Shown here piece after piece: positions 1,002 through 47,089 of a stretch of 64,000 nt of DNA. Location: NCBI GenBank assembly GCA_963823665.1, contig CAWGMQ010000003.1, positions 224,001 through 288,000 on the forward strand, written 5' to 3'. Source of the stretch: an uncultured Planctomycetota bacterium. Lineage in GTDB: Bacteria > Planctomycetota > Planctomycetia > Isosphaerales > Isosphaeraceae. A program made the translations under genes and the position numbers. The notes beneath the pieces are model-generated. The model was not told the origin of the DNA and made no database searches. It saw nothing but the letters and a program-made list of their open reading frames with translations. The first letter of the stretch is position 1, and each line of letters begins with the position of its first letter.

Positions 1002-1613
1002 TCAATCATCCAGCGGCACGCATTGCGGCAGGTCTTCCGCGAGATGCATCACCTCATCGCGCAGCCGTTTGAGCACGCGCGACTTGGCCGCGTAGACCAG
1101 GTCGATCGGCATTCCAAGGGTCGCAGCGGCATCGCTGGCAGAGCGGTTCTCGACCCACACAACCTGGAAGGCGCGCCAGGTTGCCAGTTCAAAATCGGGT
1201 TGAATCCGCTCAAGCGCGATGCGCAGAATCTGCGAGTTGAATTCGTCGTGCCATTCGGGATCCGTGCCATCAACCGCAAGTCCGTCTGGCCCGTTCGACA
1301 AGGGTTCCGGAGGCAATCCTCGCTTGTCGAGCAAGCGAAAGACTCGGTTCCTGGTCACGGTGCGCAGCCAGTCACGAAATCGGCCCCGTTGTGGATCGTA
1401 CACGAAGTCTCGCATCGATCGTAGTACCTGGGCAAGCACATCCTGAGCAACATCGGCGGCATCGGCGTCCTGGAGTCCCTTTCCGCGCGCGTAGGCATAC
1501 ACGATGGGCGCATAAGTCGCCACAAACACCTGCCACGCATCGGAGTCCGAGACGTCGCGAAGGCGAAGCAGGAGACTCGGCCGGGTCGCTCCACCAGGAA
1601 CCGGTTCCGCCAT
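1002..1613 (-). CDS. ECF sigma-70 factor (planctomycete kinase-associated type)
   Basis: TRPSLLLRLRD..AW..FV..Y, DAADVAQDV, GRFRDWL and a region-4 HTH ending VYAAKSRVLKRLR; lies directly upstream of the kinase. Start taken at MAEPVPG. Confidence 0.92.
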   Translation of the reverse strand: MAEPVPGGATRPSLLLRLRDVSDSDAWQVFVATYAPIVYAYARGKGLQDADAADVAQDVLAQVLRSMRDFVYDPQRGRFRDWLRTVTRNRVFRLLDKRGLPPEPLSNGPDGLAVDGTDPEWHDEFNSQILRIALERIQPDFELATWRAFQVVWVENRSASDAAATLGMPIDLVYAAKSRVLKRLRDEVMHLAEDLPQCVPLDD

Positions 1614-37103: not shown

Positions 37104-38296
37104 ATGTCATCGAACGAGCGACCTCTTGAGCCTGCGACCCTGTGTGCGAGGGCGCCGGCACCGGCCCCATCGACCAGCCGGCCGCTCATTCCGCCGCTCG
37201 ACCTGAGCGTGGTGTACTGCCCGGCTGATCTTGACCACGTGGATGCGTTGAACACGGGAACGAAGGAGGGCTTCATCTATGCCCGCGACGGCCACCCCAA
37301 CGCCGCCCAGCTTGCCGAGAAGATGGCTCGTCTCGAAGGCGGCGAAGCGGGGCTCGTGTGTGCTTCGGGTATGGGTGCGATTGCCGCCGTTTTCCTGTCG
37401 CTTCTTTCGCAGAACGATCATGTGCTGGTCGCGAGTGGAATTTACGGTAAAACGACGGCACTCGTCGCCCGGCTGCTTCCCCGATGGGGTATCTCGCACG
37501 ATCTGTTCGACGCAGCCGACGTGGCATCGCTGCGATTGCGGTTGACCCCGAACACGCGTCTGGTCTTCGTGGAGACCATCTCGAACCCGTTGCTTCGGAT
37601 TGCTGACCTGGAAAGCCTGGCCGAAGTCGCCGCGAGCGCCGGAGTTCCTCTGGTGGTCGACAACACCTTCGCCCCCCTGCTCTGCCGGCCGATTGCGCGA
37701 GGCGCTGCTTGGTGGTGCATTCCGCGACCAAGATGATCGGCGGCCATAGCGATCTCACGCTCGGCGTGCTCGTCGGCCCGCGCTCCATGATCGACTCGAT
37801 CCGGACGGTGGCCTCGACGCTCGGACAGACCGGCAACCCGTTCGAAAGCTGGCTGGCCTTACGCGGGCTGGCGACGCTCTGCGTGCGGATGGAGCGCGCG
37901 AGCCGCACGGCGCTCGAGCTCGCCCGGCGCTTCGAACATCACAATCAGGTCAGTCGCACGTTCTATCCCGGCCTGGAGTCGCACCCGGAGTTCGCCCTGG
38001 CAGGGCGCTTGCTCGACGGGGGCTTTGGCGCGATGGTCACGATCGACCTGGGCAGCCGCATCCGTGCCGAGTCGTTCATCAAGAATCTGGCGTCGTCGAT
38101 CCCCTTCGCCCCCAGCCTGGGCGACGTTCAAACGACGCTGAGCCATCCTGCGACAACCAGCCACCGCGGTCAGGACGAAGCTCAACTGGCCGCGCAGGGA
38201 TTGACCGCCGGCATGGTGCGGCTTTCGGTGGGGCTCGAGGATCCGGGGGATCTGTGGTCAGAGTTTCGCGGGCCGCTGGATGGGCCTGGAAGTTGA
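37104..38296 (+). CDS. PLP-dependent trans-sulfuration enzyme (MetB/MetC/MGL family), frameshift near 37705
   Basis: YARDGHPN, ASGMGAI, ETISNP, VVDNTFA, HSATKMIGGHSD (PLP lysine), SLGDV, VRLSVGLED. Confidence 0.93.
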
Positions 38297-38305
38297 GGTT
38301 CGCGT
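38108..38305 (+). repeat. left copy of a 198-bp direct repeat (gene 3' end)
   Basis: Aligns without gaps to 41350-41547; 21 mismatches by hand count. Confidence 0.95.
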
Positions 38306-38487
38306 TTAATACGGTGACAAGCGCGATGCCCATGACCACGCTCGTGAGAGCGTGGTTCGGACGGGACGAACGTCCTCCAGCCTCGGGCGTAAGCCCGATC
38401 CGCGGTCGAGATGGTCGGACTTACGTGTGATTATTACAATGAAGTGGAAGGACTCGGAAGCGCCGATTTTCGTGCGGAGGCTTATTC

Positions 38488-41349: not shown

Positions 41350-41547
41350 GCCCCCAGCCTGGGCGACGTTCAGATGACGCTCAGCTATCCGGCGACAACC
41401 AGCCACCGCGGTCAGGACGAAGCCCAGTTGGCCGCCCAGGGATTGAGCTCCGGCATGGTGCGGCTTTCGGTAGGGCCTGAAGAGCCCGAGGATCTGTGGT
41501 CGGAGTTTCGCGGGGCGCTGGATGGGCTTGGAAGTTGAGGTTCGCGT
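41350..41547 (+). repeat. right copy of the 198-bp direct repeat: orphan 3' end of the trans-sulfuration gene
   Basis: Open frame APSLGDVQMTLSYPATTSHRGQ...LDGLGS* with no 5' part or start codon. Confidence 0.95.
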
Positions 41548-41746
41548 CGAACATGCCTGGCAGCGCGCATTCGACGACTCCACGCGCGGCCAGGCGAACG
41601 ACCGAGGACTTCACCAGTGACCAGGAAGCAGGCTGGGCGAACAGCGGCACGTCGGGCAGCCCGGCTCGTTCGACCCTTCTTTCAGGTTGGGTGTCTGGGT
41701 CCTCTGACCGACGAGAGAGTCGAGGCCGCGATCCTCGGCAATTCCA

Positions 41747-43285
41747 TCATTCCGCATGCCGCTGCTGTTTGGTCCCGTGCCGGCGCAGCACTTCCATGAC
41801 AGGTTCGGTCCCCCTGGTAACATCTGGGATCTTTGCGCCGGATTTGAGCAAGGTCTCGACTGTAGCGGCATAATCTCCCGTGCTTGAGTGCCAGCCGTGC
41901 TCGGAGCCGTGCATCGCCCAGCCGAGCGGCGTGCCCTGAAAGTCCGCGTCGGTGACCTCCAGCGGTGGGCTGAAGCGCAGGATGGTCTTGGCCATCGCGT
42001 CGTTGCCATGGAAGGCCGCCCAGTGCAGCGGCGTGGCCTGGTGTTGCCCCGCGCGTCCACGGGCCAGCCACACTCGAGCATGAGGCGAACGACTTCGGTC
42101 TCATTGTTGCGCGCGGCGTGCGCCACCATTCGGCGGTCGGCTTCGCTCAGACCGTCAACGACGTTTAGATTCTCGCGCCGGATCGCCAGCGCTTTTCCTC
42201 CTCGCCCATCCAGCACGCTTCGATGAGCTTGACATCGGCCGGGCTGTGCTCCTCAAGCAGTGGAAGGACATCGTCGTGGCCGAACTTCCTGGCGACTTGA
42301 TGTGGTGAGACGTACCAACCCAGCTTCCACTGATAGATCGTGCCGCCCGATTTGGGATTGACCATGGGGAAGAATTGCTCGCTGACACGCATCCGGATAC
42401 AGTCCGGATTCGCCTCGAGATGGCGGCGAGCGAGCTCCAGGTCGCCGAGCGCCGCCGCCATGAGCAAGTCGGTCTGGCAGCCGCGGGCGACCAGGTATCG
42501 GGCTACGTCGAGGCGTTCGTCCAGCATCCATTGCGCGGGAGTCGACTCGTGGTCCAGATCGCGTGTATCGATGTGAGCTCCGTGGTCGAGCAGGTATCTG
42601 GCAATCTCGACCGAGGCCGCGAAATGAAGCGGCGTCTGGCCATCGCCGCCGCGGGCATGGACAAGCTCCGGGTCAGCTTTGACCAGGTCACGAAGTCGAT
42701 CGAGCAAGCCCAGCCGCGCCGCGGCGTGAACGTCCACGGTCGCTCCGCGCTCGATCGCATAGGCCGCTAACTCGGTACTGGCCGAGTGCAGCAGCCCGAA
42801 GCCGCCCGCCCACCAGCGGCTCTTGGCGTTCAGATTCGCGCCAAAGGCCAGCAGTACATCGAGCATCTCCTTGCTGCGAACGTTGGTGATCACCGGTGAG
42901 TCAAAAGGTCCCAGCGGCTCGTCGATCTGCGCTCGCAGCACGGGGTGGGCCTCGAGTAAGCGCCAGCGCCCGCGGCATCGTCGCTTCGTATGGCCTGTGT
43001 GAATTGTTCGACGAGACGCTCCGCACCGGGCGCGAGCGACTCGACGTGGGCCTTCAGCTTGGGCCAACTGGTAAAACCATACTCACGCGCGATGACGAGC
43101 TGCGCGCCACTGAGCGTGAAGCGAAACGTCTGGATCTCGTGGACCGACGATCCCGCAAGCCGAGGATGATTGGCCTGAATACGCTCGAGCGCCTTTGGGT
43201 CTCCGGCCTTGTGAGCCTTCTTGAGGTCTTTGGCCTGATTCTTGAGCTGGTCGAGGTTGGGACGCTCTGGCAGTGGCGTTGCCAT
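41747..43285 (-). CDS. ankyrin-repeat protein with N-terminal 'PNLDQLKNQAK...AREYGFxSW' domain (frameshifts near 42960, 42190, 42050)
   Basis: GGDGQTPLHFAA, ATPLHWAAFHG and GTPLGWAMHG across three consecutive ORFs; ATG at 43285 with a GGAG RBS. Confidence 0.88.
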
Positions 43286-43287
43286 CA

Positions 43288-43416
43288 GGAACACTCCTTC
43301 CGTTGATGCCTGTTGTCCGCAGTTCAGGCCGAAAGAAGGTTCGCTGCTATCAACGTATTGTCTGACGAGTGGACTCTGTCCTTCCCGCGGACCGGGCGCG
43401 CCTCGCACGCGCACGG
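43288..43416 (-). ncRNA. candidate structured cis-regulatory 5' leader
   Basis: Nested helices GTCCGCGG/CTGCGGAC and GAAGG/CCTTC enclosing two small hairpins; a 5' GCGCGT/GCGCGC hairpin; a TATCCT -10-like box just upstream. Confidence 0.5.
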
Positions 43417-43844
43417 TTCAGGATACAGGGAAATGCGGGGAACACAAATGGAGAATCTCAGGCTCAGGGGATGCAGACGTTTCTCTCGGCCTACGCAAAT
43501 GCCAGGTCTCGGCGGTGCCGGTTCAACGGGCACGTTCTCCAGAACGGTTGACGGACGGAGCTGATCGAAGACGAGTTGCGTTGGACGAAGGCGCACCACG
43601 CCTGGACTCTTGAGAGCCAGAACGTCGTCGATGGCATCAGGGCGATGTTAGATCCCGGTCAATCGCGGCTTTGCAGCGTAGTCGGTGTCTCGGGCTGGAA
43701 GGTGAAGCAAGCGCCGGTGTGGCTCGGCAGGAGCTTCGCGCTCTCGGAAGCGGTGGCCTTCCGGGCTGGCGGCGCTTTCATCGCATGTGGACCGATCGGG
43801 GACCCTTCGCGAAGCGAAGGGCGACAATGGGGACCGACGCGCGG

Positions 43845-46843: not shown

Positions 46844-47089
46844 ATGAAAGTGATCAATCTGGCTGAGAGCCGGCCGACGCTCGACGATGTGATTCGGCTT
46901 GCGCGGAACGGAGTCGTTGTATTGCGCGAAGCGGATGGTACGGCTTTCGCGCTCGCCGCCCTCGACGATTTTGACGTCGAGGTTGAGCTGTTGCGAAACA
47001 GTCCGGACTTCCTGAGTTTCCTGAGGCAGCTCTCAAGCGAGAGAGCTTCAATCACGCTCGACGATCTTCGGGCGGAACTGGCCCTTTGA
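46844..47089 (+). CDS. orphan Phd/YefM-like antitoxin
   Basis: MKVINLAE...LDDVIRLARNGVVVL...; C-terminus ITLDDLRAEL; no toxin ORF on either side. Confidence 0.55.
   Translation: MKVINLAESRPTLDDVIRLARNGVVVLREADGTAFALAALDDFDVEVELLRNSPDFLSFLRQLSSERASITLDDLRAELAL

Follow-up and report, generated by a model that had tools for sequence, protein, structure and literature searches.

What kind of element precedes the ankyrin-repeat gene that starts at 43285 on the minus strand of this DNA, and what does it respond to? The stretch analysed here (the window) comprises 64,000 nucleotides from an uncultured bacterium of the Isosphaeraceae, and the region just upstream of the gene was originally predicted to be a new cis-regulatory RNA in which alternative pairings free or block the Shine-Dalgarno (SD) sequence. 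All the sequence elements on which that prediction was built were found on the minus strand: the hairpin GCGCGT/GCGCGC at 43412-43396; GTCCGCGG at 43392-43385, complementary to CTGCGGAC at 43322-43315; the heptamer GGAAGGA, which occurs twice in the leader, at 43385-43379 and 43301-43295; the CCTTC tract at 43339-43335; and the ATG of the downstream gene at 43285-43283.

The downstream gene, its promoter and the 5′ UTR

The gene encodes a basic, helical N-terminal domain of 85 amino acids (43031..43285, minus strand), distantly related to the N-terminal part of Glyoxalase_8 (PF20066), followed by a remainder with Ank matches (41747..43030, minus strand). In the present assembly, the ORF translations break the ankyrin gene across three frames. 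Its closest relative among the best 80 of 520 loci, from an Isosphaeraceae genome, is 82% identical, intact, and 511 amino acids long. The frame breaks are probably assembly errors, since at two of the three, near 42964 and 42196, short-read contigs that differ from the window in nothing else (one low-depth contig each) have one base more; the third break lies at about 42050. Elsewhere in the window, the minus-strand ORF translations at about 38080-38340 and 41380-41650 resemble each other, which suggests that the end of a PLP-enzyme-like gene is present as a diverged direct repeat on either side of the 38.5-41.0 kb block, possibly through an old insertion or duplication. An 81-amino-acid ORF at 46844-47089 (plus strand) encodes what we take to be an antitoxin-like protein.

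Just upstream of the first helix of the leader, P1, lies a probable sigma-70-type promoter (43420..43447, minus strand), consisting of TTGTGT (43447-43442), a 16-nt spacer, and TATCCT (43425-43420), which had already been picked out as a -10-like box. Counted from the first conserved G, the two boxes lie at -37 and -15; they are a weak match left unflagged by a promoter scanner, and they are positioned as in the homologues. In 67 non-redundant leaders, the -35 box lies 35-39 nt and the -10 box 12-15 nt upstream of the first helix; TTG[AC][ACT] occurs at the -35 position in 58 of the 67 (7 and 6 in control windows) and TAnnnT at the -10 position in 52 (9 and 4 in control windows). Judging by the promoter position, transcription would start near 43413-43411, and since the boxes stand at a fixed distance before P1, the RNA appears to be the complete 5′ UTR, of about 123-125 nt. 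Supplementary rows of the Burkholderia data in PMC4603805, consulted for a mapped start, yielded no identifiable orthologue.

A conserved fold with two pseudoknots

Folded alone, the window leader is little more stable than expected by chance: it scored a z of -1.46, and 17 of 200 shuffles were equally good. Across 81 distinct homologues, 94.2% of cells pair in a seven-helix model (P1, PK-A, Pb, P2, P3, P4, and P5) and 26 of 36 pairs show double-sided change, and across 93 sequences outside the training set, most of them found with a pattern fixing P2 and CCACC, 94.1% of cells pair and 28 of 36 pairs are doubly changed; none of 500 shuffles reached these levels in either set, with both alignments fitted to the nested part of the model and the counts inflated by kinship. 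PK-A, Pb, and P2 are absent from the covariance model to which the alignments were fitted. The family evidence is far beyond chance and confirms the leader as a conserved folded RNA, the covariation bearing out the proposal of a conserved cis-regulatory leader. Mutual information computed over 67 sequences (82 before the removal of near-duplicates) picked out P1, P3, P4, and P5 together with a pseudoknot that had not been expected, joining the P1 loop to the segment after P3 (z 7-10).

The helices are described here in the orientation of the RNA, all on the minus strand, with values for two homologue sets. P1 (43396..43412) is the hairpin GCGCGT/GCGCGC with the loop GCGAG; its conserved core, 43410-43407 with 43401-43398, is paired in 94.4% and 97.8% of cells, and three of its four pairs show double-sided change. 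The core pseudoknot PK-A (43365..43406), missing from the original prediction, joins the P1 loop GCGAG (43406-43402) to CTCGT (43369-43365). It is supported by covariation, with APC-corrected mutual information z of 7.1, 9.8, and 8.0 for three pairs (67 sequences), is paired in 90.9% and 90.5%, and has a duplex energy of -4.36 kcal/mol with its own partner versus -2.55 kcal/mol with a swapped one. Pb (43385..43395), formed by CC (43395-43394) and GG (43386-43385), displays GTCCGC in its loop; it is paired in 93.7% and 99.5%, with few double-sided changes and a z of 4.0 for one pair. The displayed GTCCGC (43392-43387) pairs with GCGGAC (43320-43315) in P2 (43315..43392), a long-range, kissing-type helix that is 99.6% paired yet almost invariant in the main family (81 homologues); by eye, it varies in step in a Vibrio copy missed by R1, the covariance model described below. 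P2 retains six of the eight pairs of the outer helix first drawn between GTCCGCGG and CTGCGGAC, the two extra pairs holding in 39% and 73% of 67 sequences. After a purine-rich GAA/AAA joiner comes the hairpin P3, GGAC-AGA-GTCC (43371..43381), which is 100% and 99.2% paired and doubly changed at four of four and three of four pairs.

A variable linker (43343..43364), free in sequence and bounded in length (18-36 nt, median 22, in 67 homologues), separates this core from the 3′ hairpin; its 18-nt minimum fits the simultaneous formation of all the helices. The two small inner hairpins and AGCAGCGAA of the original prediction fall inside or overlap this linker, outside the conserved fold. In P4 (43289..43342), the anti-SD strand GAACCTTCTTTCG (43342-43330) pairs with CGGAAGGAGTGTTC (43302-43289) and buries the SD, with a possible one-base slip in register. 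Double-sided change at 10 of 11 and 11 of 11 pairs upholds the idea of an SD-sequestering helix. P5 (43308..43329), GCCTG (43329-43325) with CAGGC (43312-43308), was also absent from the first description; its loop contains GCGGAC, it is 98.8% and 96.5% paired, and the P4+P5 hairpin has a median energy of -18.4 kcal/mol (67 homologues). An earlier model of ours paired GG of the P1 loop with CC right after P1 and had GG/CC at the base of P3; these pairs showed no covariation, and compact variants and mutual information led us to replace them with PK-A and Pb. The helix order does not fit HDV-like or pistol ribozyme topologies.

According to the original prediction, the 5′ GGAAGGA and the SD compete for the single anti-SD tract. 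A fold of this kind, with the SD freed, is feasible on paper for the window sequence and has an energy of -45.0 kcal/mol, but it lies 8 kcal/mol above the minimum (-53.1), is not conserved, has no covariation, and disrupts P3, which is 99-100% paired and covarying; the GGA of the proposed 5′ arm is itself part of this hairpin (GGAC/GTCC). The pairs of the inner GAAGG/CCTTC helix hold in 33, 75, 85, 96, and 64% of 67 homologues, again without covariation. Swapping partners leaves the duplex between the 5′ arm and the anti-SD unchanged or slightly better (-5.65 kcal/mol with its own partner versus -5.73 swapped); for the SD/anti-SD duplex, the values are -14.5 and -9.3 kcal/mol. When the SD was forced open, the 5′-arm/anti-SD helix was present in only 4 of 67 folds. 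We consider this switch very improbable. Under the same constraint, P2 forms in 52 of the 67 nested folds and P5 persists in 4, in a procedure that is unable to score pseudoknots.

The N-terminal domain as companion of the RNA

The best 80 of 520 loci from a search with the domain include Acidobacteriota, Verrucomicrobiota, Chloroflexota, Gemmatimonadota, Poribacteria, Latescibacterota, and Planctomycetota among their phyla. We trained covariance model R1 on 65 leaders, of which these 80 loci supplied 63; it gave a full match at 79 of the 80 (73 directly before the domain gene and 6 before the preceding gene) and a match in the 3′ half only at the remaining one, training members matching by construction. 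R1 also matched 7 of 12 plasmid-collection loci (Proteobacteria, Actinomycetota, and Gemmatimonadota). Occurrence is patchy, with the leader in 4 of 101 same-class genomes. Several loci drew attention in other ways. L154 has two back-to-back leaders, 1191-1327 (minus) and 1469-1611 (plus), each before its own domain-bearing gene, and PK-A is completely changed in the second copy. L168 has a core-only RNA (2879-2953, plus) before a partial domain gene, and L219 is a viral contig with leader RNA and domain gene. At L220, a fragment matching a group II intron model (1-43, minus) lies about 1 kb upstream of the leader. An Aromatoleum plasmid (L267, about 640-800) has a short, faintly domain-like ORF just past an IS200/605 tnpA, with GCGGAC-like words upstream and no R1 match.

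Searches of Rfam 15 gave no match at the gathering score in the window (two chance snoRNA matches had E > 1) and none on any leader of 20 + 12 + 5 + 7 homologous loci, in line with the novelty first claimed. We had presumed that the leader might be the 'COG3860' motif, a suspicion answered solely by the lack of any Rfam match. No description of the leader was found in the literature by library searches or by term searches of the main text of PMC5737381, the main text and one small supplement of PMC8632094, and the accessible part of PMC11109978; the many minor motifs in the supplements of PMC5737381 and PMC11109978, which lie outside this search, possibly include one. Solibacter-1 and Soil-1, orphan motifs of soil bacteria that are not in Rfam and are listed as non-cis-regulatory in the available portion of PMC2864571, differ from the leader in sequence and length where their alignment rows there are compared by eye. 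A leader RNA that spans many phyla and combines two pseudoknots with a hairpin burying the SD is apparently undescribed.

The domain family comprises 9,452 clusters at 50% identity, and tandem copies are frequent. The AlphaFold model has five helices (pLDDT 89.9). Conserved residues are K14, K18, Q61, R66, and W73, with K or R at model positions 14, 18, and 66 in 98%, 94%, and 94% of 135 proteins; the N-terminal 85 amino acids have a net positive charge in 89% of these, versus 10% for the remainder of the protein. Fold searches gave no clear relative (best Foldseek E 2.9; best VIA Z 4.1, rmsd 3.6, 63 aligned), which does not show a new fold, and matched no known RNA-binding protein. A search of the ESM Atlas with the domain returned hypothetical proteins only, and a sequence match in the PDB, 9s82 'JUBO2' (E 0.005), was set aside, as it looks like a Lys/Glu-rich designed protein. 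NCBIfam NF004629 (PRK05973 'DNA helicase') was weakly matched by 14 of 49 domains (best E 0.0013), and the NF004629 search gave matches solely outside the N-terminal part; the same N-terminal tag may be present in that family.

To approach the association from the other side, we scanned with an RNA pattern and obtained at least 120 metagenome loci and 1 viral locus. Among the 121 loci listed, the next gene encodes the domain in 113; three of the others have too little DNA, and five have no domain match at a lenient 12-bit threshold and look, by eye, frameshifted or degenerate, so that no RNA site clearly serves a domain-free unit among those listed. In the 101 same-class genomes, all 7 RNA sites adjoin a domain gene, and the other domain rows are one degenerate copy and three weak matches, two of which are thioredoxin-like once translated. 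The window's own genome has three RNA-domain pairs out of three. In five genomes selected for carrying an RNA-domain pair, the RNA accompanies 8 of 10 domain genes, the others being an interrupted gene and a degenerate domain; one genome lacks the RNA at 2 of 6 domain genes. At L242 (G061:C1, about 1710460-1710819), a domain gene is interrupted by an opposite-strand gene, presumably of HigA type (antitoxin) from its appearance. Two cases suggest decay in concert: a domain with K-to-E changes stands behind a 25-bit RNA, and a domain without the invariant AQ has no RNA present.

The cargo varies. In a set of 50 proteins, 49 of which stand for clusters drawn from 142 ORFs, it is ankyrin in 32, LRR in 3, Clp_N in 2, FliG in 2, WD40 in 1, BFN plus Clp_N in 1, other in 3, and without a family in 6; plasmid records add fusions to VOC and DUF1835. 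Operons in which the domain gene comes second occur in three gene arrangements, and in these the RNA leads the first gene. In six related loci, close kin that represent one event, the RNA precedes a SnoaL-like gene that lacks the domain, which is encoded on its own by the next gene (93-97 amino acids). This stand-alone domain shows 5-12 synonymous versus 0-3 non-synonymous codon changes per pair, the cargo roughly 1:1, a pattern indicative of strong purifying selection. It is preceded by an apparent remnant of the leader 3′ end, which suggests that the arrangement arose by insertion. As far as gene neighbourhoods tell, the RNA is shown to track the N-terminal domain whatever the cargo, including as a separate second gene; the suspected tie to this domain holds, and the leader goes with it rather than with ankyrin repeats.

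The pairing appears to extend to Glyoxalase_8 itself. The window domain scored 17.6 bits against PF20066 and that of L140 22.4 bits, both under the 23.7 cut-off; the domain weakly matches model positions 4-56 (13 of 49 members at E ≤ 0.1), and 36 of 120 among the relatives listed for a short-form domain member carry PF20066. Unlike canonical members, the window protein has two extra helices and ankyrin cargo. Of 49 canonical Glyoxalase_8 records, 7 were examined, and all 7 have a leader of the same topology. In five, a diverged leader with the same helix order lies directly upstream; in the other two, a MATE gene comes first and the Glyoxalase_8 gene second, and the leader precedes the MATE gene, as predicted beforehand; these two operons are probably one event. 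P1, PK-A, and P2 pair in 92.9% of cells in the seven leaders, and P2 is 100% paired with four of six pairs doubly changed; their SD helix was judged by eye. R1 misses the one such leader tested (L265), so that the homology of this type rests on topology and short motifs. No leader was seen by eye at one Variovorax 'glyoxalase superfamily' gene. Five rhizobial VOC fusions, also missed by R1, have by eye the core only (P1, PK-A, Pb, and P3), and in this compact variant Pb is a fully closed hairpin.

What the leader may respond to

We consider it rather likely that promoter, leader RNA, and N-terminal domain constitute a portable autoregulatory module, in which the domain is predicted to bind the RNA. 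Transcription would start at P1; covariation shows the transcript folding the compact core of P1, PK-A, Pb, and P3, with the SD paired in the 3′ hairpin P4+P5 and the Pb loop pairing with the P5 loop as P2. The basic helical domain would bind the core, the part common to all variants and its presumed target, and the P2 junction of its own mRNA, locking the SD within P4 and damping translation as the protein builds up; the protein-free leader could relax, with P2 forming openly, P5 and P4 melting, and the SD freed. That control takes the form of repression is less certain than binding by the domain: P4+P5 is already stable alone, with the median energy given above, so a repressor may be unneeded and the protein could activate.

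Autogenous leaders of ribosomal proteins, such as the E. coli rpsO/S15 pseudoknot, offer a precedent. As in these, a pseudoknotted 5′ UTR lies at the SD before the gene of a small basic helical protein or domain, and conserved structure stands in the 5′ UTR (so assigned from promoter position) of an operon encoding the putative binder. The leader differs in having no Rfam match and in its putative binder, which is fused N-terminally to unrelated cargo or encoded as a second gene and is neither ribosomal nor a known nucleic-acid-binding protein. The 'protein binding candidate' class defined in PMC11109978 is another such precedent.

Two other readings bear on the same observations. Ligand binding in the pseudoknotted core could control P2/P5 and thereby SD release, making the leader a translational riboswitch for a metabolite or ion. 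Near-invariant nucleotides, pseudoknots, an SD expression platform, and broad spread are typical of riboswitches, and preQ1-II/III, SAM-II, guanidine-III, and ZTP are translational examples with pseudoknots; the leader likewise joins a compact, complex conserved domain with two pseudoknots to an SD-sequestering platform, has near-invariant bases even in helices, and occurs in many phyla. However, it has no Rfam 15 match and no common metabolic gene context, since ankyrin, LRR, WD40, Clp_N, FliG, BFN, SnoaL, VOC, DUF1835, and MATE share no pathway; the domain is the sole constant beside the RNA, also as a separate gene, and the Glyoxalase_8-type leaders keep the topology with a much changed core sequence, arguably more than a small-molecule pocket usually allows. 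We regard a riboswitch as unlikely. The remaining reading, that promoter, leader, and domain are shuffled as a block while the RNA answers to another host factor or condition and the domain serves as an oligomerisation, localisation, or turnover tag, draws on the very linkage that suggests a module: proximity on the DNA could be enough to hold promoter, leader, and N-terminus together, adjacency explains most of the co-occurrence, and operons with the RNA and a separate domain gene would arise by insertion too, as the leader remnant before the stand-alone domain suggests. The patchy distribution in same-class genomes and the many proteins with tandem domain copies fit such hitch-hiking as well. 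Against it, the linkage persists across very distant phyla, the long, compact, and Glyoxalase_8 types show RNA and domain diverging together, and no listed RNA-first locus clearly serves a domain-free unit; we judge it quite improbable.

Returning to the autoregulatory module, we propose, tentatively, that the RNA-domain pair is an ancient plug-in feedback device placed on unrelated genes and operons, whose long, compact, and alphaproteobacterial types have co-evolved and are possibly orthogonal, and in which the cargo could tune RNA binding. If so, each cargo fusion could sense its own partner or substrate. The 85-amino-acid domain and the 125-nt RNA are small enough for an easy test in E. 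coli, and orthogonal pairs would make useful parts for synthetic feedback. The leader adds to the known structured RNAs a cross-phylum class with two pseudoknots that is absent from Rfam. If the domain does bind its leader, more than 9,000 clusters (50% identity) and PF20066, now unannotated or mislabelled as glyoxalase, would gain a function, and autogenous translational control would extend beyond dedicated RNA-binding proteins to a movable module on arbitrary cargo.
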